From Gemmatimonadota bacterium (lineage in GTDB: Bacteria > Gemmatimonadota > Gemmatimonadetes > Longimicrobiales > Gaopeijiaceae), in the NCBI GenBank assembly GCA_034521595.1, contig JAXHMG010000003.1, positions 1,312,001 through 1,376,000 on the forward strand: DNA of 64,000 bases, written 5' to 3'. This document shows positions 1-20,200 of the stretch, one piece after another (the stretch's first letter is position 1; each line of letters opens with the position of its first letter). The position numbers were made by a program, and so were the translations under genes. The notes beneath the pieces are model-generated. The model saw nothing but the letters and a program-made list of their open reading frames with translations, was not told the origin of the DNA and ran no database searches.

Positions 1-371
1 CGAAGACGGCAAGCCTACCGTCTTCGCTGAGCGTATCCTCGCCCTCGAAACGACTCACGATGGTCGAGCCGTCTTCGAACGTCAGAATCTCGTAGCCGCG
101 ATAGGTTCCCTCACCATTTACGTGGTCCAGCGTCTCGCTCGCGGAAAGCTCGGCAACCTGCCCGTCGTCCAGGAACGCGAGCCCCCTCACCTGCACCATG
201 GTGACCGTGTGGCCCGGAACGTCGCCGACCTCGACGACCGTGACGTCCTCCGGGAGGACATGCCCGACGATGCGTCCCTCGATCGACTGCTGGGCGGCGA
301 GTCGGGACGAGTAGCACGACCGTGAGGAGGACGAGAACTGCCCGCCAGCCGATCGATTGCGATCCGTACAT
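1..371 (-). pseudogene. Exported beta-strand-rich hypothetical protein, frameshifted near 300 and running off the left edge
   Basis: ATG at 371 gives a signal-like N-terminus MYGSQSIGWRAVLVLLTVVLLVP. A second frame continues LAAQQSIEGRIVGHVLPEDVTVVEVGDVPGHTVTMVQVRGLAFLDDG...GTYRGYEILTFEDGSTIVSRFEG open to position 1. The shift could be a sequencing indel. Confidence 0.6.
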
Positions 372-884
372 CAGAGCCTCCAGGAACTGGCCGGCAAGGT
401 CCACTTGCTGCCCGCGCCGAGCGGGTTCAAGCGACGGAGCCATGGACTTCGGTGTTGGAGTCCGAGACCCGGTAGGGCAACGTCGCTCCGGCCCTATCTG
501 GGGCCGCCTTCTCCGACATTGACGTTACGTCGCTCGGTCCTTCCGCGCCACAGGGAGCAGGAGGACGGTGGGAAAGCAGGCGAGAATGAGCATGGTCCGC
601 TCTTCACGCGGCTTCCACACCAATCCCATTCGATCAGCGGCAAACCGCGTTGGGGTTGACACAGTGAGCCACTGACCGATAGCTGTGCAACGCCAGCCGC
701 GCGACGGCGATCGGCCCTGCGAGGCCCGTTTGACAACGACTCACGGAACCGGCACTGTGGCTTTGGGAAGCTCTTCGAGCCACGCCTGGCAAGACCCTAC
801 GCACGGGGCGAGTCGCCGTCCTTCGGTACGGCGTCACCATAGATACGGAGACGGTTTTCTGCCGCCCTTGCCAGGGGTCTATCC

Positions 885-2407
885 ATGTCGGATCTGACGC
901 GTAGGAAGTTCGTTCGCGGGGCCGGTGCTGGCGCCGCCCTTCTGGGATCTCTCCCGTCCTCGAAAGCTGTGCGCCCGCGGATTCGGGCGGCGTGGACATG
1001 GGCGAGGGGTTCACACCGCCCACCGCGGCAGAACTCGAGCAGATCGTGGCTCATATGGGCTTCCAGATGAGCGCCCAGGAGGTGGAGTCCTACCAATTCG
1101 TCCTGACCAGCTTTCTACAGGGCGCCGAGGCCCTGGATGCCGAGGCGGTCCTCCCCGGGCTGAGATATCCCGAGCGGTCGAGCTCATCCCCACCGATGAA
1201 GAGAACCCGCTGGGTGCCTGGTACGTGCGGACCGAGATCGAGGGAGCGTCCGAAGGCCCCCTGGCGAGCCGGACGGTGGCGATCAAGGACAACGTCATGA
1301 TCGCGGACGTTCCGATGATGAACGGCACGTCGATCCTGGAGGGATACGTGCCGGACGTGGATGCGACCATCGTCGAGCGCATCCTGGACGCCGGCGGGCG
1401 CATCACGGGCAAGTCGGTATGCGAAGCGTACTGTCTGTCCGGCGGCAGCCACACGAGCGATCCCGGGCCGGTCCACAATCCTCACCGGCGCGGGTATTCG
1501 GCGGGAGGTTCGTCGTCCGGGAGCGCCGCACTCGTCGCCTCGGGAGCCGTCGACATGGCCATCGGATGCGACCAAGGCGGCTCCATCCGGCATGCCGTCC
1601 GCCGCCTGCGGCGTGTACGGGATGAAGCCGACCCACGGCTTGGTCCCGGACACCGGAATCCTCAGCTTTTATCCCGCTATCGACCACACCGGCCCCATGA
1701 CGGCCTCGGTCGGGGACAATGCCTTGTTCCTCGAAGTGCTCGCCGGGCCCGACGGAATCGATCCACGCCAGGGAGGCGCCAGCGTCCAGCCGTACCGGGA
1801 GGCACTGGGCCGGGGCGTCTCCGGGCTGCGGATCGGCGTGCTCGAAGAAGGGTTCGGCCACACGGGCCTTTCGGAGCCCGAGGTGGATGAGCGTGTGATG
1901 GCAGCGTGTGATCGCTTCCGTGCCCTCGGCGCCAACGTCGAGGAGGTTCTGGTCCCGCTGCACCGACCCCGGCTCCATACGCTGGGGCGCCTTTCCGCGG
2001 TCGCCGAAAACGTGTTCACCATGGACGGCCATGGGGTGGGTGCCAACGGGCTGCACGTGCCCGGGTTCCTGGAGGCCCAAGCCCACTGGCGAGACCGGAG
2101 GGACGACCTACCCCCAACGGTCAAGCTCTTGCTGATCTACCACGAGGTCCTTCGATCTCGGCATGGCTACCGGATGTACGCGCTGGGGGCGAATCGGGTC
2201 AGCAGGCTACGGGCCGCGTACGACCGCGCCCTGGAGTCGGTGGACCTGCTCCTCCTGCCCACGGTTCCGTTCAAGCCGCGCCCCCTGCCCGGGGAGGACG
2301 CCCCACCGGCGGAGCCAGGGCGGACGCCCCGGCATTGTCGGAGACTCCACTGGGGTGCGCTCTTCTCCGTCTGGACCGAGGTAGACTTAACGGCCTCGCC
2401 GGCTTGA
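885..2407 (+). pseudogene. Amidase-signature family amidase with Tat signal; at least 3 frameshifts and C-terminally truncated
   Basis: Pieces lie in consecutive frames: [12 protein letters not shown] (Tat); [12 protein letters not shown]...; VAIKDN...[29 protein letters not shown]; then [19 protein letters not shown]...DHTGPM. Shifts occur near 980, 1180 and 1590. Similarity stops after LLLPTVPFKPRPLP (~2310), and the expected final GLPxGxQ-type segment is missing. Confidence 0.85.
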
Positions 2408-2469
2408 TACCGGCCGCGGAGCCCTGCCCCGGAGTCTTTTCGGTGATAGACAACCGTAGTCCAGCCAGT

Positions 2470-3051
2470 TCAAACATGATCGAACCAACCTTCGTCGATT
2501 TCGACGTCCTCCACGGTTCGGGTCTGAACCTGCACGCCGAGACCCAAGTCCTTGAGCTTATGAACGAGGAGCTCGCCGTCGATCAAGTCGATGGGTGGGG
2601 CACCATCCCTCGTGGCTTCTCTGCGAGCCTCCCGCGTGAACGCGCTGGTGGCGATGATCAGACCCTTATCTGCCCTTCCCATCATGGCCCCTCGGAAGTC
2701 CCGAACGACATCGGGCCCGATGGTTCCGGCGTACCGCTTGCTCTGGAACAGGACGGGAAAACTGATGAGGCCACCGATCCGGATGAGGCCGTGTCCATCG
2801 ATACCACCGTCTCCTGACCGCTTGGTCACTTCGACCTCGATGAATCCCGACTCGCGAAGGACCCGCTGGCAGAGTCGTTCGAAGGCAGTCGGATCCATGG
2901 CCCGAACAATCTCGAGGAGACGCGTCTCCCAGGCGTCGTCTGGCGCATCCGTGTCCTCCTCGACGCCCTCGCGCTCATCGGACGCAGGAGCCGTAAGCTG
3001 TTCAGACCGCACAACGCGGACGATCTCGGGCAGGCCAGCCGGACCCCGCAT
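2470..3051 (-). pseudogene. mrr: Mrr-type restriction endonuclease catalytic domain, lacking the N-terminal Mrr_N domain
   Basis: FERLCQRVL...GF..VEVTKRSGDGGIDG...FQSKRY...IGPDVVRDFRGAMMGRADKGLIIATSAFT...A..PIDLIDG is a typical Mrr_cat. Only the acidic linker remains upstream. Confidence 0.85.
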
Positions 3052-3316
3052 CGGCGAACAAGTCTTGGAAGTAGACTTGGCCTTCGGGATACATGGACTC
3101 TTCTATCGCGCGGCGCACTCGTTCCCGCAGGTCGGGGTCTTGCCCGAGAGCCACCGCAAAGGCCTGTGCAAGCCGCGGCAGTCGGGCACTCATCTCTTCA
3201 ACGCCGCCGACGGTTTCGAACAGGCGAGGCGGTTCAAAGACGGGGGCCGGGCCAGACACGTCGTCGGAACACGCGCCGAGCACCAAGAGCGTGGAGACTG
3301 CCAGGCGTCGACGGGT
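3002..3316 (-). pseudogene. N-terminal fragment of a lipoprotein
   Basis: The frame reads VTRRRLAVSTLLVLGACSDD (lipobox LGAC) followed by a helical segment. No convincing start codon; coding character is lost near 3040, where Mrr linker sequence begins in another frame. Confidence 0.5.
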
Positions 3317-3333
3317 TACTCTTGACCTGCGCC

Positions 3334-3356
3334 CACCACCCCCGACGGCGGTGGTG
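3334..3356 (-). terminator. Hairpin directly downstream of the ttrC-ttrA fusion stop codon
   Basis: CACCACC (3334-3340) and GGTGGTG (3350-3356) form a perfect 7-bp inverted repeat 5 nt after the stop at 3362. There is no U-tract, so termination is uncertain. Confidence 0.4.
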
Positions 3357-3361
3357 CAGCC

Positions 3362-6300
3362 CTACGTCACCTTCTCGATCCGCACCCGGGTGTCCAGGAA
3401 GACCGTCGCCCCTCCGGCGGGATCGACGAGGGGCATGCCCGCGAGCTCTTCGTCGTTTCGGCGCATGGCGTCGTTCACGCTGAACCCCCGGCTGAAGCGA
3501 CGCGGATCGGGGCGCACGGTGTCGCCCTCCGCCACGGGGCTGCTCATGCCGTGGAGGATGGGACTCACGAAGGAGCCGCCGGTCATGACCGATGCCGCGT
3601 CCTGGATCTGGAGGCGGCTGTTGCCCTGTTGCGTGTGCTTGAAGTGATGGGTGCCCGCAATGACCCCCCTGCGGCAACGCGGAGTTCGACGGGCGAATCC
3701 CTCGGAGGAGCCGCTGGGTGAGGAGATGCGCACCCGGTCTCCATCCTCGATGCCCAGCTCGGCCGCGTCGAGGGGGTTCACTTCGATGAAGTTCAGCGGG
3801 TGGATCTCTCCGGCCCAATAGTCGTAGGCGGTGCGCGCCTTGGTGCGCGTGGCCAACCGGAAGGTGACGATCCGGAAGGGATAGTCGGCATCCTCGTCTT
3901 CGATGCGTCGGCCGCGACCGTCCACCGCCGGAAGGTAGGTGGCACCTCCATGGTTCATCCGGCCCGTACCGGGCTGGCGGGTCGTGGCCAGAACCTCGTG
4001 CCAGATCTGGATGCCCACCGTGTCCGTCATACCCATCCCGGCTTTGAAGCGCCCCTGTTCGTCCCAAGCGTTCTCGGGAGGCTCGAAGTATCCACCCCTC
4101 GCCAGGAGGGTGCACACCTGGCGCCATAGGCCGGGTGTCAGCAGGTCCCGGTGCGCGGCCACGGGATAACTCCGTTCGACGTAGGCCACCTCTTCCGGCG
4201 ACGCTTCCGCAACGTTCGTATTCACCGCCAGATTCGCCAGAGCCCGCACGTAGTAGTCCTCCACCTTCTGCAGCGGAACCCGCTGCCCGTCCGGTCCGGG
4301 AATGGCTTCGGGGCCGTACCCCGGCATGTCCAGGCGCTCGGCCACATCGATGAGGAAGGTCTCGAGCAGCATGGGGCGTCCGTCTGGTGTCCGGTCCGTC
4401 AGGGGCTCCACCGCGGGTGTCCGTATCCCGATATGAGGCGCGGGACAGGCGCCCACCATCTGCTGCATGAACCCGTACTGACCGTCCAGGTACATCGCGT
4501 CGGGCACGATGTAGTCCGAGTAGATGCTGGTCTCGCTCACGGTGGTGTCGATGGAGATGAAGAGCGGAACCTTCTCCGGGTCCGTCAGGGTCTCGATGTA
4601 CCGGTTGCCTCCCGGAATGCTCTTGATGGAGTTGATGTAGTAGTTGATGAGAACCTTCGGACGGTACGGGTACCCTGTGGAGAAGGCCGCCGCCGCCTCG
4701 GTGGTGATCCCGGCATGGGTGAGGGGGTACCAGGGCCGCTGGGCGGGATAGGGGTCTTCACCCGCTTCGGCCTTCCTCCGGTACTCCGTGCTGTCCTCAT
4801 ACCGAACCGTGCTTCGGGCTCCGATGCGCGAGACGTGGACGCCCTCCGTGGTGGGCGCTTCCGCCACCTGGCTCAGGTTGAACAGGCCACTCTGCCAGGC
4901 GGGGGCGCTGGCCCTGGTGATGACGCCCCCCTTCCACCCGTAATTTCCGATGAGCGCGTTCAACATCTGGATGGCCAGGCCGCTGTAGACGCCATTGCTG
5001 TGCATGGTGGCGCCCCGGTAGCACGAGGCGGTGGCCGTGCGCCCGTGGCTCGTGAACTCCCTGGCCAGCCGCGCGATGGTGCCGGAGGGGATGCCGCAGA
5101 CCTCGGCCCAGCCCTCGAGAGAGCGCGAGAACGCGTCGTCGCGGAGGATCTGCCAGGCGCTCTTCACCCGCACCCCGTCCACCGTGGTGTCCACGAAGAG
5201 CTCGGCGGCCTGGGTGCTGTTGAACGGGACGGCGCCGGCAGACGTCATCACCATGGGCTCTCCCTCGCGCCGAAGCATCCGGTGGAAGTCGGGATGGCCC
5301 TCCTCGACGACCACCAGGTGGGTGCCGTTCGTCCAGGTGGGGTGTCCGGCGGCGTCGGCGGCCGCACGGCCGGGCCGGCTGATGTAGTCCCGGTCGAACC
5401 GATCGTTCTCCAGAATCCAACGGATCATCCCGAGCGCCAGGGCGGCGTCCGCGCCCGGCTGGATGGGCACCCACTCGTGCGCGTAGTGCCGCCCGTGGGG
5501 CACGTAGGGGTCGATGAGGACGAGCTTGCACTCCTTGTTCGCGTGCCGGTTCGCGAGGATGGGCGCCGACGTGTTCACTCCCGGCTTCCATCCGCCCCCC
5601 AGGTTCACCCCGAAGAACAGCATGTAGCTACTGTGGTTGATGTCTCCAAAGAGTTGGCTCGACGGGCGCGTCTCGCCTTCCCGGTATCGCCCTGTGAGGA
5701 GGTAGTTCGCGACGTACCAGTTCATCTGGCAGAGGTCGGTATGGCTCACGTAGTTGGCGGAGCCGAACGCCCCCATGAAGCGCTCGATGAAGTTCTGTCG
5801 CCCCGGCTGTCCGCGTCCCGTGTTCCAGACGAGGCCATAGGCTTGCGGCCCGAGCTCGGGTTGGGTGGGATCGATGGGATCGAAGTTGCGGACGGCGCGC
5901 AGCCCTTCCACCTCCCTGTCCTCTCCGGCCTCCTCGAACAGGCGCCCGCCCTCCACCACCTCGTCCAACAGCTGACTCCATGAAATGGGCTTGAATTGCC
6001 CGGAGCCCCGGGGTCCGGTGCGCTTGAGCGGGCGACGAATGCGGTACGGATCGTAGAGGTACTGAAGTCCGGAAACCCCTTTCAGGCATAGACTTCCGCT
6101 GGTGCGCAGCGACGCGTCCATCGGTGTCTCGTAGGCAATGGGGTTGTTCATCGTGGAGGCAGGGTGGTACGGGTTTCCGAAAAGGTTCCGGATCCGCCCG
6201 TCCCGGATCACCGCCCGGTTTCCGCATCGAGCGTCACACGACAGACAGATGCTGTGCACCACCGCGTCGGCCTGAGGTGGTGTGGGGCCGGGTACCCGTT

Positions 6301-7582
6301 TCCGGTAGAAGGGGCGAAGAACGGCCCCCAGGGTCGCGTATCCGGACACGGCGGCCAGTCCGGCTCCGGCGGCGAGTCCCACCACACGGCGGCGGTCGAA
6401 GCCCGCGTCGGCCGCTTCCTCGGGGGTGTCCGGTTTCTGGGTGCCCGTTCCGCGTCGCGGCCAGGGAAGGGCGTACCAGAGGAGAAATCCCACCACAAAA
6501 GCCCAGAGGACGAGGCCGGTGGCGGCGAACACGCCTTCGCGGCCCAGCCAATGGAGCGGCTCGAAAATGAATCCCTCACCCGTGCGAGAGATGCTCTGCC
6601 CGCCGATGATGAGGTTCCATCGGCTCATGAACAGCCCGAACAGAGCCAGAAGGCCGCCGGCCGCCCCGAGCGCCCCACTTCCCCTTACGGCGGCCGCACC
6701 CAGCAGGGCCAGGGCCACTGCCCCTCCCACCAGGAGCTCCCCACCCACATACGTGCCCGCGAAGAGGTCGAAGTGGAGCGTGCGCACCGCGGGCCAGATG
6801 AAGTTCTCCACGTAAGCCGCGTGGGCGAGGTCCCAGAGCCGGAGTGAGAGGTGCACGGCCAAAAACGCCGCTCCGCTTCCCGCCAGCAGCCGGGTCAGAT
6901 CCCGCTCCTCTCGCAGGACGGCCGAGAGGCCGGTCAAGACCGACATCCATGCGAAGCCCGACGCCAGGGCTGCAACCCCGAAGAAGACCCCGAGCAGGGG
7001 TGTGTACCAGAGGCCGAAGGAGCGCATGGTGCTGAGGAGGAAGCCCGTGTAGAACACGAAGAGCACGGCCGCGGCCACCGCGGCCAACGCCACCCAGAAC
7101 CGCACTTCGCGCCGGTCCAGCCAGAACGAGCGCTCGGGCGTGTAGCCCCTTGCGGCCAGCCCGTAGAGGCGCCCCAGCCAGTCCTCCCGATGTCCCGCGG
7201 CTTCAGCCAGATACGGGCGGTGGACCAGCCACAGGACCCCGAAGACGAGGGCCGTGAGCACGATGAGGGTCACGCTTCCATACGGCATGGCTGACGGGAG
7301 ATGCGGGGCGAAGAGCACCCGCCACATCCTCAGTGGCTGACCCAGGTCCGCGATGACGGCCAGGGGGATCACCGTGAAGCATGCGGCTGCCGAGACGACC
7401 GCCAGGCGGCGCACCTCCCGAAGGGCTGGACGGTCGAACACCCCGCGCAGCCAGGGCAGAACGCCGATGATGAGGCTTCCGGCGCCCACACCGGAGAGGA
7501 ACATGTACGTGACCACGATGAGCCCCCACCGGACGTGCTCGTTGGGGAGTACGTAGTTCGGATCGAAGACGAGGTAGTCCAT
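3362..7582 (-). CDS. Fusion of a NrfD/TtrC-type membrane anchor and a TtrA-clade molybdopterin oxidoreductase catalytic subunit (1406 aa)
   Basis: N-terminal WGLIVVTYMFLSG...ADLGQPLR...S.M..GS NrfD motifs with about 9 TM helices. Then FDRRRVVG plus a hydrophobic helix, the FS0 motif CLSCDARC...GSLCLKG, YDPYRIRRPLKRTGPRGSG, the Mo-ligand region SHTDLC and a C-terminal molybdopterin-binding domain (NPLDAAELGIEDGDRVRISSP). Confidence 0.92.
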   Translation of the reverse strand: MDYLVFDPNYVLPNEHVRWGLIVVTYMFLSGVGAGSLIIGVLPWLRGVFDRPALREVRRLAVVSAAACFTVIPLAVIADLGQPLRMWRVLFAPHLPSAMPYGSVTLIVLTALVFGVLWLVHRPYLAEAAGHREDWLGRLYGLAARGYTPERSFWLDRREVRFWVALAAVAAAVLFVFYTGFLLSTMRSFGLWYTPLLGVFFGVAALASGFAWMSVLTGLSAVLREERDLTRLLAGSGAAFLAVHLSLRLWDLAHAAYVENFIWPAVRTLHFDLFAGTYVGGELLVGGAVALALLGAAAVRGSGALGAAGGLLALFGLFMSRWNLIIGGQSISRTGEGFIFEPLHWLGREGVFAATGLVLWAFVVGFLLWYALPWPRRGTGTQKPDTPEEAADAGFDRRRVVGLAAGAGLAAVSGYATLGAVLRPFYRKRVPGPTPPQADAVVHSICLSCDARCGNRAVIRDGRIRNLFGNPYHPASTMNNPIAYETPMDASLRTSGSLCLKGVSGLQYLYDPYRIRRPLKRTGPRGSGQFKPISWSQLLDEVVEGGRLFEEAGEDREVEGLRAVRNFDPIDPTQPELGPQAYGLVWNTGRGQPGRQNFIERFMGAFGSANYVSHTDLCQMNWYVANYLLTGRYREGETRPSSQLFGDINHSSYMLFFGVNLGGGWKPGVNTSAPILANRHANKECKLVLIDPYVPHGRHYAHEWVPIQPGADAALALGMIRWILENDRFDRDYISRPGRAAADAAGHPTWTNGTHLVVVEEGHPDFHRMLRREGEPMVMTSAGAVPFNSTQAAELFVDTTVDGVRVKSAWQILRDDAFSRSLEGWAEVCGIPSGTIARLAREFTSHGRTATASCYRGATMHSNGVYSGLAIQMLNALIGNYGWKGGVITRASAPAWQSGLFNLSQVAEAPTTEGVHVSRIGARSTVRYEDSTEYRRKAEAGEDPYPAQRPWYPLTHAGITTEAAAAFSTGYPYRPKVLINYYINSIKSIPGGNRYIETLTDPEKVPLFISIDTTVSETSIYSDYIVPDAMYLDGQYGFMQQMVGACPAPHIGIRTPAVEPLTDRTPDGRPMLLETFLIDVAERLDMPGYGPEAIPGPDGQRVPLQKVEDYYVRALANLAVNTNVAEASPEEVAYVERSYPVAAHRDLLTPGLWRQVCTLLARGGYFEPPENAWDEQGRFKAGMGMTDTVGIQIWHEVLATTRQPGTGRMNHGGATYLPAVDGRGRRIEDEDADYPFRIVTFRLATRTKARTAYDYWAGEIHPLNFIEVNPLDAAELGIEDGDRVRISSPSGSSEGFARRTPRCRRGVIAGTHHFKHTQQGNSRLQIQDAASVMTGGSFVSPILHGMSSPVAEGDTVRPDPRRFSRGFSVNDAMRRNDEELAGMPLVDPAGGATVFLDTRVRIEKVT

Positions 7583-7587
7583 GGTGA

Positions 7588-9498
7588 TCAGCGGTTGAGC
7601 TCGGCGGGCAGGCCGACGTAGTGAACGTTCGGGCCGAGTCCCAGATCGCGCCGCAGCACCTGCGTCGAGCGGTCGCGGAGGTACTGCGATACGGGGCTCT
7701 CGTCATCGTTCAGGTCCCCGAAGATGCGGCACTGCGAGGGGCAGACGTCCACGCAGGCGGGATTCAACCCCTCGTCGATCCGGTGGGCGCAGAAGTTGCA
7801 CTTGTCCGCTGTTCCCCGGGCCGGATTCATGAAGGTGATGCCGTACGGGCAAGCCTGATTGCAGGCCCGGCATCCGATGCAGATATCCGGTTCCAGATCG
7901 ATGATTCCGTCGCCCCGGCGGAAGATGGCTCCGGTGGGGCATGCTCGCAGGCACCCGGGATCGTCACACTGATTGCACAGCTTTGGAAGGAAGTAGGGAC
8001 GTGCATCGGGAAACTCTCCCAGGAGATGCTCCTCGACCCAGTCACGGAACACGCCGAGCGGTACGTCGTTCTCGGCCTTGCAGGCCACGGTGCAGGCATG
8101 GCATCCGATGCATTTCTCGAGATCGATGACCATGCCCAGGCGTCTGGCCTTTGGAGCCGCCGCCGGGCCCCCGGGAGTCTGCGCCGGGGCTCCACCCGCG
8201 GCCAGGGTAGCGAGGGCACTCAGCGCGGTGCCGATGCCCTGCAAAAACGAACGCCGGCCTACGCCGGGCTCGGCGGGGGTGGTTTGTGCGGGTTGCGAGG
8301 AACAGCATGTCTCCGAGGAACAGCCGCACCCTGATTCCGCGGGCCTCGCCACCTGTGGAGCGCTCACGGGCTCGGGCTCTACCACGCCGATGGTACGGCA
8401 GGCCGGGCAACGGTCGATCTGTGCGACTTCGGCCGGGAGATCGCTACGTCCGTCGAGGAGGTTGCGCACCGACCGCAGAAGCCGTTCGGGAAGGTGTGGC
8501 GCCCCGCAGCTCACGCACGCTGCCACCGTGTCTTCCACCAGCGTCTGCGGGGCCAGGAGATCGACGCCGACCGGGAGGCCCGGGGTCAGGGTCAGGACCT
8601 GCTCCGGGCATGCCGCCTCGCATAACCCGCACCCCACGCAAGCGATGGGCTCGAAGGTGAGGCTTCCCTGAGCGGGGTGGAAGGACAGGGCATCGGTCGG
8701 GCAACTCCGGGAGCACGCACCACAGAGGGTGCACCCGTCGGCCTGGATGCTTACCCGCCCGAACGCGGCCTCGGGCACAGGAGCTGAAGGGACAGTCGAT
8801 CCCTGGACGAGCGCCGCGAGCTGCTCCCTTCGCCGGCCTCGGGGAGCGAGGGCTGGCTCGGGTGGAGGGTTCCGTATGGGCAGGGAGTCGGCGAACGCCG
8901 TAAGCTCTATCGCGATCTGCGCGGCGGCCCGGGCCTCCACATAACGGGTGGGCGGTCCTCCGAGGGCCTCGGAGAGGCCGAGGGCATCCTCGATCAGAGC
9001 GGGGGATCCGTGGTGACTGAGGGGCCCACCCACCACGGCGATGCCTGCCACACCCAGGCGCGCCGCATGGAGAAAATGGTTCTCGTTCAGGATGAGGAGG
9101 CTGGGGATGGTCACCCGTGCCACGGGCCCGGACGGCGGGACAAAAGCGCCCAGGGCGGCATCGTGCTCTGTCCCCGCCAGGACCAACAGCGGAGCCGTCG
9201 GGGCCTCGGTGACAGCCTCTTCGAGGAGGCCTATGAGCTCGTCGTCGGGGAGGAAAGCTCGTTCCAGGGCACCGGTGGGGCAGACCCCCGTGCAGGCGCC
9301 GCACCTCTGGCAGAGTCCGCCATCGATGTGGATCACCGTGCCTTCCGGGGTCGCCAACGGCCGCATGGCGAGGTAGGGACAGCTCTCCACGCAGCGGCGG
9401 CATCCGGTCTCCCCATCCTCGCCCGCGGCACAGATGGAGGCGTGGTACTGTGGCGGCGGGAGCGTGAGGAGGGAGCCGGAAAAAGAAGCGGTCGACAT
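7588..9498 (-). CDS. Fusion of an N-terminal polyferredoxin and a TtrB/DmsB-type 4Fe-4S electron-transfer subunit (636 aa)
   Basis: N-terminal CRRCVESCP, CQRCGACTGVCP, CTLCGACSRSCP, CVGCGLCEAACP and CVSC...CPAC. Internal GRRSFLQG Tat motif with h-region and APA-Q site. C-terminal MVIDLEKCIGCHACTVACK...CNQCDDPGCLRACP...CIGCRACNQACP...KCNFC..R. Confidence 0.92.
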   Translation of the reverse strand: MSTASFSGSLLTLPPPQYHASICAAGEDGETGCRRCVESCPYLAMRPLATPEGTVIHIDGGLCQRCGACTGVCPTGALERAFLPDDELIGLLEEAVTEAPTAPLLVLAGTEHDAALGAFVPPSGPVARVTIPSLLILNENHFLHAARLGVAGIAVVGGPLSHHGSPALIEDALGLSEALGGPPTRYVEARAAAQIAIELTAFADSLPIRNPPPEPALAPRGRRREQLAALVQGSTVPSAPVPEAAFGRVSIQADGCTLCGACSRSCPTDALSFHPAQGSLTFEPIACVGCGLCEAACPEQVLTLTPGLPVGVDLLAPQTLVEDTVAACVSCGAPHLPERLLRSVRNLLDGRSDLPAEVAQIDRCPACRTIGVVEPEPVSAPQVARPAESGCGCSSETCCSSQPAQTTPAEPGVGRRSFLQGIGTALSALATLAAGGAPAQTPGGPAAAPKARRLGMVIDLEKCIGCHACTVACKAENDVPLGVFRDWVEEHLLGEFPDARPYFLPKLCNQCDDPGCLRACPTGAIFRRGDGIIDLEPDICIGCRACNQACPYGITFMNPARGTADKCNFCAHRIDEGLNPACVDVCPSQCRIFGDLNDDESPVSQYLRDRSTQVLRRDLGLGPNVHYVGLPAELNR

Positions 9499-10113: not shown

Positions 10114-10720
10114 GCCTCATCCGACGAGTTCGAGGCGAGTTTGGTTGAGAGCATAGCTGCGGAGCTTGAAGAAGACCTGGTCTCGGTAGCCGTAGGACCG
10201 GCGTTTGAGGAGCTGGATCTTGGTGTTGATGCCTTCGAGCTCGCTCGATCCAGCCTATGAGGAACCGCCGGGCCGTGTCCTTGTTCGGCTACGTCCAGAG
10301 CTCACGGAGTTCTTCCTCGAGGTAGTAGGCGGCAGCGAGCGGGGCATTGAGCGCCAGAGCCGCCTGGAGTCGGTCGCCCTTCGTCGCGGTCCTCATCCAA
10401 CCGCTCGGGGTTCTTGAGCATCAGCCACCGGGTGCCTTTGAGGACCGCTTGGGCCTCGGCTTCGGCTTAACGCTGCAGTGCCCTACGCAGATCAGAGAAC
10501 TTGTCGTTCATGAGCTTGACGAGGTGGAAGCGGTCGAAGACCACGGCGCCGCACTCGAGGTCGAGCACGATCGTCAGATCGCGGTGGCCTCCCTCGATAC
10601 TGATCTCATCGATGGCGATCCGCTTCAGGTCCCGGAGCCGGGGTCGACCGAAGCGTCGCTGCAGTGCGGTCTTCACGATCTCCTTGACCAACCCCCAGCT
10701 CACGCCCAGATGCCGCGCTC
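10114..10720 (-). mobile_element. ISL3-family transposase remnant (internal deletions, stops, 5' part missing)
   Basis: ARHLGVSWGLVKEI...IAIDEISI...VFDRFHLVKLMN; LKGTRWLMLKNPE; AYYLEEELRELW; LEGINTKIQLLKRRSYGYRD..FFKL with the stop at 10117 inside a TCGGATGAGGC end typical of ISL3. Confidence 0.9.
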
Positions 10721-11478
10721 TACGAGAGTGTCCAATTCTCAACCGTTGCTTTTGTCCAAGATCAAACCGGTGGTGACAAAGGATATGGGGTGTGGCAGTA
10801 AACGCTCGATGTAAGCGTCCGGGATGCTATCGTTCATTACGCGTGTTTTGCCGTCGCATCAGCGATGCTGTCAGGATCAGCCACAGGCCCTTCGACGTAC
10901 CGGCGTAAAGCGGGCCAAAGCACCTGACGCAGCAACTCAGTCGTGCCCCTCCCCCCGCCCGAACCTCCCCGACGACCAGGCCGATGGGCTAGCCCGCAGC
11001 CACCGGGCGTTCCTACCTCTCCCGCGCCCTGCGCAACTCCTCCGCGAGTCGGATGAGATCGGTCGCGCGCTTCTGCGTCAGCTTGGCGAGCGCCTTCTCC
11101 CAACCCTCCGGCGGTGCGCGATAGGACGCGGACTCAGGGTCCAGGCGGGCGCGCCGGAGGGACTGGCTGCGGAACCCCCGCCGCCTTCGCAATGTCGGCG
11201 AGCGCGACGCGGGCGCCGGTCGCCCGGTCGGTGGCCTTCTTGAAATCCAAAGACTACGCTCCTGGTGCCTGAAGTGCGGATGGCCACGACAGTGTAGCCA
11301 ATGAGGGCCACGATGGCGAGGATACGGGTGGCGCATCCAGGGCCTCTCCTCCGGGTTGCGCTCCGGAGCATGAAGCTTCACGGGTGCCCATGTTGGAGCG
11401 TCCGATCCGGGCGCGGGACAACGCGGCCCGGCGGCGTGGCATGCTTCTCGATCCGCGAAGCCCCATGACTTCCTTCCC

Positions 11479-12135
11479 TCACCTCGGCTCGATGAGACCC
11501 GCATCGTCGTCGTCCGGGCGGTTCACCCGCGGGCTCACCTCACGCACCTCGAACGAGCCGTCCGCGGCGGGGACGAGGAGGTCGCCAAGTCGGCCGGTCG
11601 GGGTCGACCGGTCGAGCCACCGGTCGCGGTCCCCGGGCGCCACCACCACGGGCATGCGATCGTGGATCGGGGCCACCTCGGCGTTGGCGTCGGTGGTCAG
11701 GATGGCGAAGGTGTGCCGGGGCTCGGCTCCGGGCCTCTGCCATGACTCCCAGATGCCCGCGAACGAGACGAGCCCTCCCGCAGCCGGGTGGATCCAGTGC
11801 GGAATCTTCCTCCCGTCCCGTGCCTTCCACTCGTAGAAGCCGTTGGCCGGAACGAGGCATCGACGGCGGGCGAACGCCTCGCGGAACGAGCGCTTCCGGG
11901 CGACGGACTCGGCGCGCGCGTTGATGAAGGCCCCGGTCGGCTCGTCCTTCCAAGCGGGCAGGAACCCCCACTCGAGCAGCCCCATCCGGCGGCCCCGGTC
12001 GTCTTCGGCGACCACGGGCGCGAGCTGGCCGGGGGCGATGTTGTAGCGAGGGTGGTGCTCGAAGGTGAGACCCGGGAGGTCGAACACCTCGACGAGGTCT
12101 TCCTCCGACACCGCTAGCGCGTACCGGCCGCACAT
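11479..12135 (-). CDS. SOS response-associated peptidase (SRAP; YedK/HMCES family abasic-site protein)
   Basis: MCGRY N-terminus, PRYNIAPGQ, INARAES, RRCLVPANGFYEW, IHDRMPV. Confidence 0.96.
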   Translation of the reverse strand: MCGRYALAVSEEDLVEVFDLPGLTFEHHPRYNIAPGQLAPVVAEDDRGRRMGLLEWGFLPAWKDEPTGAFINARAESVARKRSFREAFARRRCLVPANGFYEWKARDGRKIPHWIHPAAGGLVSFAGIWESWQRPGAEPRHTFAILTTDANAEVAPIHDRMPVVVAPGDRDRWLDRSTPTGRLGDLLVPAADGSFEVREVSPRVNRPDDDDAGLIEPR

Positions 12136-12152: not shown

Positions 12153-13562
12153 TCAGTGGCCCGCCCCGTCCGTGGCCTGCTCCCCCACCTGCAGGGCGAT
12201 GTAGGAGAAGTTGAAGCACATCTCGTCGTACGATCCGTAGCCACCGTAGACGACCTCGTCGGTGGGGTTCTCATAGGTGCACCGGACCCGGAGCTCGGCG
12301 CCGTCCATCTTCTCCCGGGAGAAGACCTTGGGCTCGACGAAGGTGAAGTCGCGCTGCCAGTGCAGGTCCCACTCGGGCACGGACAGAAGGGTCTGGTAGC
12401 GCCCGTCGGCGTCGGTGAGGCTGATGACGCCCGAGTGACCGAAGGCGTGCATGTGCAAGTTGGCGGAGTGGATCTCGAAGCCCTCGATCCGGGCCTCATC
12501 CACGTCGGTGATGCGCGACGCGTAGCCGACGAGGGAGGACAGCTCGTCGCTGACCTCGTATGTGGCCTGCTCCTCCGGCGGAATCACCATCGTCCCGTTG
12601 CGCCCGCTGTTCAACCACGGCCCGTGTGTCTGGGGAAGGTGGAAAGCGGGCTTCTCCACCTCGGCCTCGAACTGGAAGTCGAGGCGGGTGTCGCGGTCCG
12701 CCTCGCCGGGCGCTTCGACGCTGTAGTAGTGCATCTGCACGACCAGGGCCGCGCCGGGCTCCATCCTGATCCCCGTGCCCTCGGGGAAGGTGTGGCCGTC
12801 CATGCCCGGCGCCCAGTGAGCGAGCCACCAGGACGCCCGGCTCAGCTCACGGACCCCGTCGGGATACCGGGCCTCGTACGCCTCCCGTTCGGCCCGTTCA
12901 CTCAGCCGGTCGGGGAGAGCGCCGCCGAAGCACTGATAGCCTTGGCCCTCCTCCTCGTCCTCGAGCTCCCGGAAGCGCTCGACCATCTCGGGGTCCACCG
13001 CGTACACCACCGTGTGATGGGCCACGTTCTCGTTGCCGGGCACGGTTCGGAATCCCGTCACGTATCCCCGATCCTCGGCGGTCCACTCGGTGACGAAGCA
13101 GCGGTAGTCGTCGTCCATCGACTGATCGGGCAGGTACGGCGTGTCGCCGAGCACGTCCGTCGACAGGTCCGCGCGGAACGTCGGCGGAGCGTTGGCGGGC
13201 TCGACCTCCGGATCCGGCCGCGGCTCGCCCTTCGGATATCCGGCGTCGCGCCACGCCGCAACCATGCCGACGACCTCTTCGTCCAGCGACATGTCGCCGA
13301 CGTACTCCTGATGGCCCGGCTCCGCGAGCCATGGGGGCATCTGCCGGACGGTCACCGCCCCGGCGATGCGGCGCCGCTCCTCGAAGGTCTCCTCGGGATC
13401 CTCCATCGACCAGGCGATACCGTCCTCGGAATGGCATCCCATGCACTCCTTCGCCAGAACGGGACGGACGTCGGCGTAGTACTCCTGAGCCTCGACCGCT
13501 GCGGGAGCCAGGAGGACGGCGGCGAGGAGGGCGGCGACCGGTGGGGCGGGCGGATAACGCAT
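12153..13562 (-). CDS. Exported heme c / copper type II (PHM/DBH-like) monooxygenase fusion
   Basis: RBS GAAGGGAG before ATG 13562; signal peptide ending VEA-Q; CMGCH then MPPW; Cu-ligand motifs AHHTVVY, QMHY, LHMH and DEMC. Confidence 0.85.
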   Translation of the reverse strand: MRYPPAPPVAALLAAVLLAPAAVEAQEYYADVRPVLAKECMGCHSEDGIAWSMEDPEETFEERRRIAGAVTVRQMPPWLAEPGHQEYVGDMSLDEEVVGMVAAWRDAGYPKGEPRPDPEVEPANAPPTFRADLSTDVLGDTPYLPDQSMDDDYRCFVTEWTAEDRGYVTGFRTVPGNENVAHHTVVYAVDPEMVERFRELEDEEEGQGYQCFGGALPDRLSERAEREAYEARYPDGVRELSRASWWLAHWAPGMDGHTFPEGTGIRMEPGAALVVQMHYYSVEAPGEADRDTRLDFQFEAEVEKPAFHLPQTHGPWLNSGRNGTMVIPPEEQATYEVSDELSSLVGYASRITDVDEARIEGFEIHSANLHMHAFGHSGVISLTDADGRYQTLLSVPEWDLHWQRDFTFVEPKVFSREKMDGAELRVRCTYENPTDEVVYGGYGSYDEMCFNFSYIALQVGEQATDGAGH

Positions 13563-13665
13563 CTCGGTACTCCCTTCGGCGTGGCACAGCCGGGTCCGCA
13601 CGCAAACCCGGACCTGCAAACTACGGTCCGCGAGCGATGTCGGCACGCATGGCGTGTCACCGCCG

Positions 13666-14706
13666 TCACCGGCCCCTCGAATCCCCCACCGCCCGGAAGT
13701 AACCCCGGAGATTGGACGGCCGATACGACGGATCCTCGTCCCACCGTCGTATGGCCGAAGGATGCAGCGTCTGCGATCGGTCGGGGCGAATGGGACGCTC
13801 GTGGCGGGGCGCCAGCCGGTACCACCCTACCCTGGAATTGTGGGCCTGCGCTGTCGGCTCTCCCTCCAACGGCCGCGCCGCGACGACGTCCGAGTCGAAG
13901 TGGAGACCCGCCAGCTCCGCGTTGTCCATCATCCACTGGAGCGTGATGTCCGACAAGCCGTCGTCCAGGTATCCGCCCCCGACGTCGCTGTGCACGCCGG
14001 GGAACCAGGTCTGGGACACGAGCTGGCCGGGCTTCGGCTTCTCGATCCAGAGCGTCGGCTCGAACGGGCCACGGCGCTCGTCGATGGCGAGTGCGTGGAA
14101 GGCGTACTCCACGGTGCCACTGAGCTCGCAATCGTGGAAATCCCGATTCCTCCGCGTGAGCGCGCGGAGACCGGTGAGGGGGATGCCCAGCGCCCCCACG
14201 GTGTCCCAGACGCCGATGCAGCGGATCGGGATCGACTCGGAGCCGCAGCACGAGTAGCTCGCACGGAAGCTGGTGGGCTGGTCGTCGTCCGGGTGGGTGC
14301 CGGAATCCTGGTACAGCTCGAGGGCGTCGACGTACATGCCGACGTGCTTGCGGTCGAGAATCCCGCACTTCCGGATCATTCCGCCCAAGCTCCGAGCGGT
14401 GTAGGCCCCCCTGCTGAACCCGAAGAGGTAGATCTCGTCGCCCGGCTCGTAGTTCGCGAGGAGGAAGCGATAGGCGTCGAAGATGTTGTCGCTCAGCCCC
14501 CCACCGAACGCCCCGCCGGTGAAGCGATCCAGCACGTTACCGGTGCCGACGCCCTGATCGTAGAAGACGATCTGCGCCACTCCGTCCGGGTCACGCTTGG
14601 CGACGCGGTACGCCAGCTTGACCACGTTCGTCGGGCAGAGTGTTCCGTCCTTCTGCTGGTCCGCCCGGTTCCAGGTCCCGTCGCAGCAGATGACGAGGCG
14701 TTTCAT
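13666..14706 (-). CDS. DUF2235 (Tle1-like) alpha/beta-hydrolase, putative phospholipase
   Basis: KRLVICCDGTWN, TNVVKL, YDQGVGT, FGFSRGAYTAR, IGVWDTVGALG, HALAIDERR, WFPGVHSDVGGGY. No signal peptide. Confidence 0.95.
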   Translation of the reverse strand: MKRLVICCDGTWNRADQQKDGTLCPTNVVKLAYRVAKRDPDGVAQIVFYDQGVGTGNVLDRFTGGAFGGGLSDNIFDAYRFLLANYEPGDEIYLFGFSRGAYTARSLGGMIRKCGILDRKHVGMYVDALELYQDSGTHPDDDQPTSFRASYSCCGSESIPIRCIGVWDTVGALGIPLTGLRALTRRNRDFHDCELSGTVEYAFHALAIDERRGPFEPTLWIEKPKPGQLVSQTWFPGVHSDVGGGYLDDGLSDITLQWMMDNAELAGLHFDSDVVAARPLEGEPTAQAHNSRVGWYRLAPRHERPIRPDRSQTLHPSAIRRWDEDPSYRPSNLRGYFRAVGDSRGR

Positions 14707-15049
14707 GTCACGATCAGAATATCTTCATCCATGCCTCCACTATATCCGGATTACGATTGGTTGGACACGAGGTGGTGGACTGGTCCCGGGTACAGGCCGG
14801 GTACAGCGCCATCGGCGTAGTTTCGATGGCCGAGGCGCACCTTGCCCGCGCGTTCACCGCTGGGCATGTTCACGGGAACACCGGCTCGCCCTCCTTCGTC
14901 TCCGAAGCAGGTGGCCGCGTAGGAGAGAGCCCTCTCCAGCCGGTGCGCACTTCAGCTTGATTCTGCATGAGCGCCCCCTTCTCGATCCACCTCGTCGGGT
15001 CTGTGTCGGTGCGGCTTCCGCCCTGCTATCTCGTGAACAGGAGGCTCCT

Positions 15050-17278: not shown

Positions 17279-20200
17279 CGGTGCTACGCGGCATCACGCT
17301 CCTCGACCTGATCCCCGAGCTCCCGGCGGGCGCTCAGGGCATCATCCCCGGCGACATTGGGCGCTTCCTCGAGCTGCTGAGCGTCGTGGAGCACGCCCCG
17401 CTCGCCAACGAGGGTTGGTTCACCCATGGTGGCGTGCTCCAGGGCGCCACCGATGCGGGACTCGAGCTGCCCGCCAACCTCCCGCTCCGGCTTCCGGGCC
17501 TCAACGCCGGCGTTCGCTTCCAGCTCTCGTGGCCCCGCGTGGAGCCCGTGGGCACGGATCCCGGGGACATGGAGGGGGCCCCCGACCGCTGGATCCTGGA
17601 CGTCTACGTGGGACGCATCGTCGTTCCCGTCCCCGGTCCGACGCCGGCGACACGGGTCCCGAGCGCCCCTGCTCAACCCCAGCATCTCGTCGCCGACCGG
17701 TCCCGCGACTGGGTGCAGATCACGGGAAGCGGCGTTCTCCGCATCACGCACGACGACAGCGGAACCGCGCTGGACCTCATCGCCCCGGCCGACCCCCTCG
17801 ATCCCGAGGAGCCCATCGGAGCGGTGCTGGAGCTGGGGCTGAACCCGCCCCACATGCTGTTCCACGAGAGCGGCTTCGGCATGAGCATCGGTCGGGTCGT
17901 CTGGGACGCGACCGGCAGCTACACGCCGCCCGAGATCGAGGCCCGGGGCCACGACGCCGCCTGGAAGGGCGTGTCGCTGGCCGAAGCGTCTCTGTACCTG
18001 CCGCATAACCTGCCGCTGTTCGGGGACGTCTCGTTCGGGGTCAAGGACGTGCTGTACGGACTCACCGACCCGGGCGGCGTGCAATTCGATGCCTACCTGG
18101 AGCTGGGCAATCCGCTCTCGTCGGGCGAGACCATCCAGTTCTTCCAGGAGCTCGAAGACGGAACCATCCATCATCCCTCCGACCCCGGGGCCGGCCTGAC
18201 CCGGACGGTCGTGCTCCACTCCTCGACGGAGGAGCGCGCACGGGTACGGGCCGTCCTCGATTCGGGGGCGGACGCGGTCTGGTCCTATCCGGGCGCGCGC
18301 AACGTCACCGCGCAGGGCACCGACTGGTTCACGGTGACGCCGGGCAACGAGCGGAGCTCGCTCACATTCCGCCGAGTCGCCACGAACGAGGCCGGGGAGA
18401 CGGTGTTCGGCCCGCAGATCACGTTCGTCTTCCGGAAGGAGGTCCCGGAACCGCAGCACGCGCCCAGGATCCAGGTCACGCAGGACGGGAACACGTGGGA
18501 CAACGTGGTCCACCTCTCGGGATCCACGGAAGCGTTGGCGGGCCTGGAGTTCACCGTCGTCTCGGACCCGAGCCTCACACCGGAGCGAAGGGAGCAGCTG
18601 CGATGGGACCTGGAGCACGACGGCGTCTCGCTGTCGGTGACCGGGGACTCGTTCACGCCGGCCACCTCGTTCCGCCCGGGCCTGCACGTGCTGGTGCTGC
18701 ACGACGAGGAGGACCGCACGCGGCGGCTCGAGATCGAGGGGATCGAGGAAGGGCGGCTGATCGTGGGCTCCGAGGGGGGACCGCGTGAGGTCGACGGAGG
18801 CACCGAAGGCGCCGTCGGGGTCACCGGCGTCGAAGCGTCGCACCATCTGGCGACCTACCACGAGTCGGGCGAGCGGACGGCTGCAAGCGGGGATCAGGCG
18901 TCCGTGAGCGGAGGGACGCTCACCGTCCCGGAGGGCGTCCTCGCCGAGGCCGCCCTCGACATCGGCAGCGGCGACGACCCGGACGCGGCGAACCCGGCGG
19001 AGGAGGAACCTCCCGTCCAGGCCGTCCGGATCTTCATGGTCTTCGAGGTGGATCAGTTCGCCGGCGAGTGGCGCCGGATCTCACCGGTACGGACGGACCC
19101 GGGCTGGGACCCGTTCGGGCCCCTGGAGCCCTACCCCGACCACGGCCCGACCGGCACGGGTCCCCGGGACCCGGTGGGCATCGCGTCCGGCGACGCCGTC
19201 TCCCCCTTCGTCCCCTCCGACCTTCTCCGGTGGGCGGAGAGCTTCCCGTCCGACACGGATTTCGTGGTCATCGGCCGCTGCGACGACCTCGGGCCGCAGC
19301 AGCTCAACGTGGACCTCGGTGCCGACCGGGCGCAGGCCGTGTTCGACCTGCTCACGTCGCCGTCCTCCGGATCGGAGCTCACGGCCATCGATCCCTCGCG
19401 GATCTACCACCGCGGGGAGCAGGAGAGCGCGTCCCTCCCCTCCGGCACCCCGGACATCCCGGCGGGCCGGCCCGGGCTGAGCGACCGTGCGGCCATCGAA
19501 TGGCGGATCCACGACGACTATCCGGACTCCGACACGAGCACCGGCTCGGGCTGGGGTCCGACCCGGGACGACCGCTCGGCCCGGCTGGAAGCGAGGTGCG
19601 TGGACGTCTACGCCATCCGGCCCGCCACGGACACCACCGTCGTTCCGCCGTCCGACGACGAATCCCGGGATCCCGCCCGCCGCCGCGCGCTGGTTCCGGG
19701 ACCGGACCGCACGACGTCCGAGGAGCCCGCCCCGCGCGACGTGGACCTGGGCTACCGGCTGCAGCTCCGCGCCAAGTGGGACAGCCCCACCATCGTCGAC
19801 AAGCGCGACTGGATCCCCGTGCTCGTGGAGATGACGCTCGACTGGCAGCGGGAGTCCCGCGCGCTCCCCGACGGCATGGGCGACGTGCAGCCGCAACCGG
19901 TCAGCGACGACGCCAACGCCGAGATCTGGCGGTTCCTCGGTCGCTTCGCCTACGACCCGCGGAGCGGGCAGACGGAGTTCACCGCGGCGCTGGACACGCC
20001 GGGCGACGAGAAGGGGATCTTCCACATCGTCTCTCCGGACGCCGACTCGGACGCCGACGAGGTCGTGGCGCTGGCGCTCGGACTCGGGCCAGCGCTCCTG
20101 GCGGGCGTGGACGCGGCGGAGCCCGGGAGCTCGGCCGTCCGCATCGGCGCGCTGTTGGCGGCCGTGGCCGGGGTGCTCGCCACCGACATCGTCAAGGACG

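Follow-up and report, generated by a model that had tools for sequence, protein, structure and literature searches.

The main question raised by this locus is how a single polypeptide that joins a multispanning membrane anchor to a large molybdenum-dependent catalytic subunit might be assembled in the cell. The locus lies in a stretch of 64,000 nucleotides (hereafter, the window) from a Gemmatimonadota bacterium (GenBank assembly GCA_034521595.1, contig JAXHMG010000003.1, positions 1,312,001 to 1,376,000), where one gene, P0001, is best explained as encoding, in one polypeptide, both the membrane-anchoring and the catalytic subunit of a complex iron-sulfur molybdoenzyme of the Ttr/Psr clade. 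The features of the sequence favor, with a probability of about 0.7, a protein that would be inserted by both the Sec and the twin-arginine translocation (Tat) pathways, that is, a class IV Tat substrate, forming a permanently tethered enzyme. The gene is composed of the following parts, with the evidence for each given after the semicolon:

3362..7582, minus strand: single-chain NrfD-MopB coding sequence (P0001), with its stop codon at 3362-3364; list of open reading frames (ORFs), translation, and four Pfam domains
6467..7540, minus strand: NrfD/TtrC-like quinone-interacting membrane domain, residues 15-372, with nine transmembrane (TM) helices; Pfam NrfD, hydropathy, AlphaFold2 (AF2) and Foldseek, and counts of lysine plus arginine (K+R)
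6395..6466, minus strand: predicted cytoplasmic linker, residues 373-396; alignment of 31 fusions, and a predicted local distance difference test score (pLDDT) below 50 at residues 377-393
6389..6394, minus strand: twin arginines R397-R398 (RR) of the internal Tat-type motif; conservation in the fusions
6317..6385, minus strand: tenth helix, residues 400-422, a predicted Tat-inserted, uncleaved signal-anchor; hydropathy and conservation
6296..6316, minus strand: positive flank behind the tenth helix, residues 423-429 (R423, R427, K428, R429); sequence
3365..6271, minus strand: TtrA-like catalytic domain of the Mo/W-bis-molybdopterin guanine dinucleotide (bis-MGD) type, residues 438-1406; Pfam, NCBIfam TtrA, and the PDB relatives PsrA and ArrA

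The ORF encodes 1406 amino acids (aa) in a single frame, with zero internal stops and a third-position G+C of 0.85, and each of the four Pfam domains on the chain exceeds its curated cut-off. The NrfD domain (PF03916) covers residues 15-330 (101.6 bits, against a cut-off of 25.8), and is followed by Molybdop_Fe4S4 (440-511), Molybdopterin (600-1042), and Molydop_binding (1237-1320). An initial annotation of this DNA had described one ORF with about nine NrfD-type helices, a charged loop, the motif FDRRRVVG at about 6386-6400, a further helix, and a bis-MGD domain of about 950 aa. All of these elements are present, with FDRRR (residues 395-399) falling exactly at 6386-6400 and the full FDRRRVVG at 6377-6400, and the catalytic part measures 969 aa (residues 438-1406). 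The labels found in public annotation are either “NrfD/PsrC family molybdoenzyme membrane anchor subunit” or “tetrathionate reductase subunit A”.

The initial annotation had proposed a search for other single chains that combine NrfD with Molybdopterin, and these were found both among the protein relatives and in complete loci. In a set of 5.8 billion proteins searched with residues 1-520, 30 of the 32 relatives carry both domains in a single chain of 1073-1455 aa, the exceptions being a partial protein of 1018 aa, on a 3.3-kb contig, and an unfused protein of 948 aa. A scan limited to one genome per species produced 29 loci, all from metagenome-assembled genomes (MAGs), of which 14 contain a full-length, in-frame fusion with 53-87% identity; most of the remaining loci are interrupted by contig ends, and L029 is a distant unfused relative. 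The 14 fused loci come from at least six phyla and several separate MAG projects on salars and soda lakes, and are labeled as Gemmatimonadota, Planctomycetales, Deltaproteobacteria, Trueperaceae, Acidimicrobiia, Dermatophilaceae, Nitriliruptoraceae, and Egibacter. The fused clade is also monophyletic among unfused proteins (6/6 rows, support 100). The probability that the fusion is an artefact of assembly or sequencing, or the product of a recent loss of a stop codon private to this genome, is thus vanishingly small, because independent assemblies carry the same in-frame junction, and it is close to certain that the fusion is real and conserved.

Two partial proteins on short MAG contigs (P0033 and P0036), which are 99% and 88-95% identical to the two proteins of the module in the window, are labeled Thioalkalivibrio sp., while the label of the nearest full-length operon (87% and 77%) is Gemmatimonadota. 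This reflects either a taxonomic conflict or the transfer of the module between phyla.

The fusion is not confined to the clade of the window. A search with the catalytic domain alone against 1.84 billion representatives recovered 230 matches below 1e-30, and the best 150 of these include five clusters of NrfD-MopB fusions, as defined by Pfam: P0005, which is the clade of the window, and P0172, P0173, P0174, and P0177, with 34-38% identity. These last four are found in four separate places in the tree of the TtrA-like enzymes, and the fusion of anchor and catalytic subunit is therefore recurrent; the RR is present at the junction in three of the four. The tree is a quick maximum-likelihood reconstruction (LG+G4), unrooted, with support only from the approximate likelihood ratio test (SH-aLRT), and contains 51 rows, that is, 10 fused and 41 unfused proteins of at least 950 aa picked from the top matches. 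The fused state requires at least five changes in this tree, all forced by well-supported branches, which indicates that the fusion has been gained or lost at least five times among the TtrA-like enzymes, with gains and losses being indistinguishable because the root of the tree is not known.

The side of the membrane on which the RR motif lies depends on the topology of the anchor. Nine strong Kyte-Doolittle segments were recovered (residues 19-43, 58-79, 100-121, 160-184, 193-218, 229-250, 278-300, 303-324, and 348-372), together with a weaker tenth (400-422), with a maximum value of 1.6. The AF2 model of residues 1-520, based on 16 sequences (pLDDT 69.8, predicted template modeling score 0.76), contains nine long helices and a further helix at 397-422. 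The best solved matches of its membrane part in Foldseek are ActC (8k9e_C, 6lod_C, and 6btm_C; template modeling score by target 0.64-0.67) and PsrC (2vpw_C; 0.59), and the modeled domain appears to contain the eight-helix core of the NrfD/PsrC type, which in this family is made up of two four-helix bundles and lacks redox cofactors. A phmmer search of the PDB with the membrane domain alone returned zero matches. The family profile aligns with ActC from chain residue 79 onward, a position which, given the published ten-helix layout, is presumably past the extra first helix of ActC. Heme motifs with Cys or His were not seen in the NrfD domain of the fusion.

In all 29 full-length fusions, the predicted inner loops (1-2, 3-4, 5-6, 7-8, and 9-10) contain 12-19 K+R, against 3-7 in the N-terminus and outer loops. 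The Salmonella TtrC has been modeled with nine TM helices, its N-terminus on the positive (P) side of the membrane and its C-terminus on the negative (N) side, while both termini of PsrC are on the P-side (Calisto and Pereira 2021, PMC8076601). The positive-inside rule and the published TtrC/PsrC topology support an N-terminus outside and a cytoplasmic RR loop, because the nine-helix NrfD core starts on the outside. This bears directly on the initial annotation, which had named a periplasmic RR motif, as given by the TM count, as the outcome that would count against it. Its proposal of dual targeting by Sec and Tat, with a tethered enzyme, remains the best reading of a conserved fusion with an RR motif on the cytoplasmic side, but its analogy with the Rieske protein, which it supposed to have an odd number of Sec helices ahead of the RR, has to be abandoned: in the Rieske type, the N-terminus is inside, and an even number of TM domains before the RR was sought by Tooke et al. 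(2017, PMC5449189).

Some residues of a putative quinone site can also be followed. Members of the NrfD family have a conserved Arg in TM helix 8, and a Ser and an acidic residue near the quinone site on the P-side (PMC8076601). In the fusions, R321 (helix 8) is found in 29/29 sequences, S97 in 28/29, and D79 in 20/29, with S replacing it in eight, and these residues may correspond, by their position in the helices, to Arg280, Ser93, and Asp75 of TtrC.

The linker between helix 9 and the RR is a charged stretch of 24 residues (373-396), and varies in both length and sequence among the relatives. The arginines that follow this hypervariable loop have nevertheless been kept, with R397 found in 29/29 fusions and R398 in 28/29, and the pair in 30 of the 31 sequences of the larger alignment. 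In the window, D-R-R-R-V-V is followed by 23 uncharged residues, so that the segment has the appearance of a Tat-substrate motif, with an RR and an uncharged hydrophobic stretch, on the predicted cytoplasmic side. The tenth helix is weakly hydrophobic, with an insertion-energy sum (a crude sum, with scale values that do not come from a dedicated tool) that is positive in 29/29 fusions, with a mean of +2.5, in comparison with -1.2 for helix 9, the most hydrophobic. It leads straight into RPFYRKRVPGP, with no long c-region, and the K+R behind it number four in the window, with a family mean of 2.0 within the 15 residues after the helix. A weakly hydrophobic last TM domain and positive charges at its C-terminal end are the features found to bring about abortive Sec insertion and the handover to Tat (Tooke et al. 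2017, PMC5449189), and helix 10 appears to possess both of these characteristics of the class IV Tat substrates, a class defined in a 2026 review (PMC13673990).

This signal-anchor is probably retained, because it lacks a c-region and residues within and just behind it are conserved in the fusions (G414 and P424 invariant, T417 at least 90%). The nearest unfused relative (44% identity) begins with MTQTRRKFLK...AAGYAPTL, which is homologous to the internal signal of the fusion, and an uncleaved Tat signal reportedly anchors the TtrA of Salmonella (James et al. 2013, cited in PMC5449189). A fusion of the Ttr type would need only the loss of a stop codon, because the nine-helix TtrC ends in the cytoplasm and the next gene starts with a signal-anchor; no change in topology would be needed either, given that TtrC ends on the N-side and TtrA keeps its Tat anchor.

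The catalytic part matches the TtrA model of NCBIfam best (NF011567; E 7e-165, 550.4 bits), followed by PhsA (165) and ArrA (122), but does not reach the TtrA equivalog cut-off of 1750. The membrane part, in turn, scores 46.3 bits with TtrC (NF011568; residues 17-360, model positions 17-320 of 341), against an equivalog cut-off of 314. The name “TtrC-TtrA”, given in the initial annotation, thus holds as a label for the best match, but not for membership in these families. The solved relatives of the catalytic domain are PsrA and ArrA. The N-terminal [4Fe-4S] motif (C446, C449, C453, and C499) is invariant, and C618 (window 5729-5731), which is found in 29/29 fusions, aligns with the Cys of the ArrA motif SHSSVC, which we take to be the Mo ligand of ArrA. 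A probable Mo ligand at C618, the cysteine cluster, and three Pfam domains in the expected order point to a Mo/W-bis-MGD catalytic subunit of the dimethyl sulfoxide reductase family.

Tetrathionate is the best match for the substrate on sequence grounds, and other sulfur, arsenic, or selenium oxyanions, or the reverse direction, may also be possible. In the actinobacterial loci, the module lies among genes encoding ArsA, ArsD, ArsR, ACR3, ArsP, and MobB. Eight of the 28 loci (L004, L006, L012, L013, L016, L018, L024, and L028) have at least one ars family, and six have at least two, all of them MAGs of Actinomycetota, while no arsenic genes are found in the window. The arsenic-resistance genes beside the module in these actinobacterial MAGs, which come from arsenic-rich salars and soda lakes, hint at a possible substrate other than tetrathionate.

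The fusion is accompanied by a second gene of unusual architecture, which lies directly upstream of it in the window and in all 16 loci with upstream DNA. Its parts are as follows:

7588..9498, minus strand: partner gene P0002, 636 aa, its stop 5 nt before the ATG of the fusion
8299..9498, minus strand: N-terminal polyferredoxin, residues 1-400, predicted to be soluble and cytoplasmic; Pfam Fer4 families, conserved cysteines, and AF2
8158..8265, minus strand: internal Tat-type signal, residues 412-447, GVGRRSFLQGIG, with a short hydrophobic (h-) region and APA-Q; RR conservation and alignment
7591..8139, minus strand: C-terminal TtrB/PsrB-like four-cluster ferredoxin domain, residues 454-636 (183 aa), predicted to be periplasmic; NCBIfam and Foldseek

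The N-terminal domain of this partner contains four motifs of the CxxCxxCxxxCP type and a CxxC...CxxC tail, with the cysteines conserved in 45 sequences. Of the 119 listed non-self matches, 51 cover at least 80% of the protein, and partial and short ones are left out of the alignment. Residues 8-376 fold in the AF2 model as a separate domain (pLDDT of about 90), followed by an unstructured linker (377-446). The domain has soluble, stand-alone relatives (26-32% identity) without the TtrB-type part, and an atlas search recovered structural look-alikes among Pseudomonadota proteins of 514-682 aa, which are generic 4Fe-4S proteins. A fold search with the whole model returned matches to the C-domain only, and none for the N-domain. 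The C-domain matches DsrO, NrfC, TtrB, and ArrB in NCBIfam (E 1e-55 to 4e-60), just reaching the cut-off for DsrO (203.1 against 200) and falling below that for TtrB (188.6 against 416), and it scores 88.8 bits with Fer4_11, for a cut-off of 26.2. Its Foldseek match is PsrB (2vpw_B; template modeling score by target 0.87, root-mean-square deviation 1.9, 46% identity).

Between the two domains, R415 and R416 are invariant in 45/45 sequences, and the aligned relatives have in common a motif similar to SRRxFLK, an h-region, and a site of the AxA type, which give the segment the appearance of a typical, cleavable Tat signal. The initial annotation, which recognized the internal signal of the fusion, had overlooked both this second one, in the upstream Fe-S subunit, and the recurrence of the fusion in other TtrA-like clades. 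An internal start, which would produce an ordinary TtrB, was considered and rejected as a conserved feature: only 4 of the 14 valid loci have ATG or GTG two codons before the RR (two of the 16 rows, with a wrongly picked RR, were set aside), and the window has GTA there, with no start-capable codon within the 12 codons before the RR. In the scheme of PMC13673990, the partner would be class V-like, by analogy, and the fusion class IV-like.

A possible course of assembly can be outlined from these features and the literature on other dual-targeted proteins. Helices 1-9, of the NrfD/TtrC type, would be inserted co-translationally by the signal recognition particle, Sec, and YidC, with the N-terminus out and the end of helix 9 in. 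The weakly hydrophobic helix 10, with the RR ahead and R/K behind, would escape integration by Sec, and the 969-aa catalytic domain would fold at the inner face of the membrane, where it would gain its [4Fe-4S] cluster and Mo-bis-MGD. The Tat translocase would then recognize R397-R398 and transport the folded domain to the periplasm, leaving helix 10 in the membrane beside helix 9 as an uncleaved anchor. The partner would be exported through its own Tat signal, from behind its 400-aa cytoplasmic polyferredoxin. By analogy with PsrABC and TtrABC, quinol would be oxidized at the NrfD site on the periplasmic side, with electrons flowing by way of the four [4Fe-4S] clusters in the partner to the [4Fe-4S] cluster of the catalytic domain, and then to Mo at Cys618.

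A number of observations weigh against this dual insertion with a permanent tether. The RR is replaced by R-G-R in one fusion (1/29 and 1/31 in the two alignments), and one distant fused cluster has T-R-S-A-F-L at the junction. On the same crude scale, helix 10 does not stand out from helices 6 and 8, which are just as weakly hydrophobic, and the positive charges behind helix 10 vary, being reduced in some members of the family to a single R beside D/E. The small residues L418-G419-A420, near the end of the helix, might allow a cleavage there. The AF2 model has a pLDDT below 50 in the [4Fe-4S] domain, and does not show on which side of the membrane the catalytic domain lies. No TorD/TtrD-like chaperone or tat gene was found by Pfam among the 34 neighboring ORFs or elsewhere in the window. 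Three loci (L022, L026, and L028) hold only C-terminal remnants of 250-630 residues, even though upstream DNA is present. In these three loci, unrelated genes lie upstream of the C-terminal pieces, which represent either gene remnants or chimeric assemblies.

The complex might instead face the cytoplasm, with both RR motifs being vestigial, as in NarG and SoeA, and helix 10 either not spanning the membrane or following an inverted NrfD (N-terminus in, ten Sec helices). The 400-aa polyferredoxin of the partner, which has no plausible export route, would be easy to understand in an entirely cytoplasmic complex, and the lack of a Tat chaperone gene nearby would be expected, while NrfD enzymes of this kind do exist, such as SoeABC (PMC8076601, PMC6620896). 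Fusions of Fe-S and NrfD parts without a signal are also known: many proteins of 464-580 aa (P0090-P0153) were seen that join a TtrB-like Fer4_11 domain to a following NrfD, in the order B then C, and the four that were inspected begin directly with the Fe-S domain, with no Tat signal, which means that they are probably of the cytoplasm-facing type. These B-C fusions are a separate type, however, and signal loss therefore occurs where the signal is not needed, so that they display what such a loss looks like. In the present module, by contrast, the RR is kept in 28/29 fusions and 45/45 partners amid hypervariable linkers, and the partner retains the motif, h-region, and AxA-like sites that a vestigial signal would be expected to lose. 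An inverted NrfD, in addition, is contradicted by the positive-inside rule in 29/29 sequences, and a cytoplasmic orientation is, on balance, unlikely.

It is decidedly unlikely, too, that the dual-targeted fusion is only an intermediate of biogenesis, which signal peptidase would cut after helix 10 to release separate TtrC-like and TtrA-like subunits. The small residues near the end of the helix and the cleavable appearance of the internal signal of the partner would favor a cut, but the fusion has no c-region, with the helix continuing directly into the conserved RPxY..PGPTPPxAD, while the conservation of G414, T417, and P424 would be unusual in a discarded h-region, and in Salmonella, TtrA reportedly retains its signal in the form of an anchor (James et al. 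2013, cited in PMC5449189). That helix 10 is an ordinary Sec/YidC span, with the catalytic domain crossing unfolded and gaining its cofactors outside, is highly improbable, even though helices 6 and 8 do not exceed it in hydrophobicity on the crude scale, given that periplasmic molybdopterin and Fe-S proteins are described as obligately Tat-dependent, their cofactors being inserted in the cytoplasm (PMC10924467), and that the conserved RR would have no role. Dual insertion by Sec and Tat, with an uncleaved tether, is thus the preferred reading.

The fate of the partner is a separate matter. It is possible, if rather doubtful, that both subunits use internal Tat signals and that the signal of the partner is then cut, leaving a tail-anchored, four-cluster polyferredoxin on the cytoplasmic face, under a periplasmic molybdoenzyme. 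The ideas put forward for the role of the N-terminal domain are maturation of the NapF type or a cytoplasmic electron port. Electrons cannot cross the membrane along a single helix, and NrfD contains no cofactors. If the polyferredoxin works in the mature complex, it may be a built-in, NapF-like factor for maturation or reduction, or an electron port coupled through NrfD and the quinone pool. If true, this would represent a previously undescribed wiring between ferredoxin-level chemistry in the cytoplasm and a molybdoenzyme in the periplasm, as well as the first case of an internal Tat signal that is cleaved. The partner gene raises the question of whether a Tat signal located behind a large, folded Fe-S domain can work, and then be cleaved.

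The surroundings of the module provide a number of further observations. In three of the loci (L024, at 1-5372, as well as L016 and L019), the fused module is immediately preceded, on its upstream side, by another molybdoenzyme set of an ordinary kind. This set comprises a MopB protein bearing an N-terminal Tat signal, subunits of the Fer4_11 and cytochrome b561 types, and a protein with a rhodanese domain, and looks like a thiosulfate or polysulfide reductase. In the window, an Mrr-type restriction endonuclease (2470-3051, minus strand) and a short fragment of an ISL3 transposase (10467-10742, minus strand) flank the two-gene module on opposite sides, with an SRAP gene at 11479-12135, which suggests a variable or acquired region. 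An amidase extends over two overlapping frames at 925-2407 of the plus strand, with 925-1890 matching positions 38-156 of the Pfam profile, and 1361-2407, positions 157-382, and is probably a frameshifted gene. At the thresholds used, Pfam returned no match for three very long ORFs of the plus strand with a third-position G+C of 0.80-0.91 (17185-24783, 2532 aa; 28110-31523, 1137 aa; and 14597-17278, 893 aa), and the neighbors of these ORFs are an ORF for a phospholipase similar to Tle1 of the type VI secretion system (13666-14706) and a copper monooxygenase-like ORF (12153-13646).

A search of the literature, which included few subscription journals and did not extend to the web candidate lists of Tooke et al., where such proteins may be included, found no description of a single NrfD-molybdopterin chain, nor, in the same journals, of a polyferredoxin placed ahead of a Tat signal. 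In the available sections, the words “fused” and “fusion” are absent from the review of NrfD (PMC8076601), the words NrfD and molybdopterin from Tooke et al. (PMC5449189), and the word “fusion” from the soda-lake study of Vavourakis et al. (2019, PMC6704655). This last study reports complete ttrABC in MAGs of Nitriliruptoraceae, and metagenomic counts of “complete ttrABC”, such as this one, conceal a different architecture. Few families are known to be assembled by both Sec and Tat, and the rules of the handover were worked out on proteins in which two to four Sec helices precede a small passenger. The fusion would extend this class to nine Sec helices, an N-out start, and a passenger of approximately 1000 residues with two cofactors, and the at least five independent natural versions, found beside unfused relatives, offer ready comparisons for the rules of hydrophobicity and charge.

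Among the known systems, the TtrBCA of Salmonella shares the gene order B, C, A with this module, and provides the best NCBIfam match of the catalytic part (TtrA), with TtrC and TtrB among the other matches. Here, however, C and A form a single chain, B carries a 400-aa N-terminal polyferredoxin before its Tat signal, and the scores are far below the equivalog cut-offs (550 against 1750, 46 against 314, and 189 against 416); no ttrD-like, ttrS, or ttrR gene was seen near the module. In the PsrABC of Thermus thermophilus (PDB 2vpw-2vpz), the best solved relatives are found for the catalytic domain (PsrA, E 6e-38) and for the C-domain of the partner (PsrB, 0.87), and PsrC matches the membrane model (0.59), but the three are separate chains, PsrB has no cytoplasmic extension, and PsrC, with eight TM helices and both termini outside, has no ninth helix to return the chain to the inside. 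Alternative complex III provides the best structural match of the membrane domain (ActC) and also has a fused subunit, ActB, which combines a MopB-like and an Fe-S part, and is not known to contain a molybdenum cofactor. In this case, the fusion joins A-like and B-like parts, rather than anchor and catalytic subunit, and ActC has ten helices, with both termini inside.

The partner resembles the FecR-type class V proteins in having an internal Tat signal after a folded N-terminal domain that is kept on the cis side, although FecR is a sigma regulator without redox cofactors, and its signal is described as uncleaved (PMC13673990). In the partner, by comparison, the cis domain is a four-cluster polyferredoxin and the exported part a four-cluster ferredoxin, while the AxA-like sites suggest cleavage. 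The fusion itself can be compared with the proteins that use both Sec and Tat in the study of Tooke et al. (2017, PMC5449189), namely, the actinobacterial Rieske protein Sco2149, the heme-molybdenum cofactor (MoCo) protein Sco3746, which is a fusion of the MsrQ-MsrP type, and the NapH-NapG polyferredoxin of MLMS-1. Like these, it combines a polytopic Sec part, an RR ahead of a weakly hydrophobic last TM domain, positive charges behind, and an exported domain that binds cofactors, and two of the three also fuse subunits that are separate elsewhere. They differ in having two or four Sec helices, with the N-terminus inside, rather than nine, with the N-terminus outside, the only N-out family in that study being the YkuE-like metallophosphoesterases, and in their passengers, which are Rieske, sulfite-oxidase-type MoCo, or ferredoxin domains, rather than a 969-aa bis-MGD/[4Fe-4S] domain. 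By analogy, the module should work like TtrBCA and PsrABC, with the anchor and the catalytic subunit tethered, and should be assembled like the proteins of Tooke et al.

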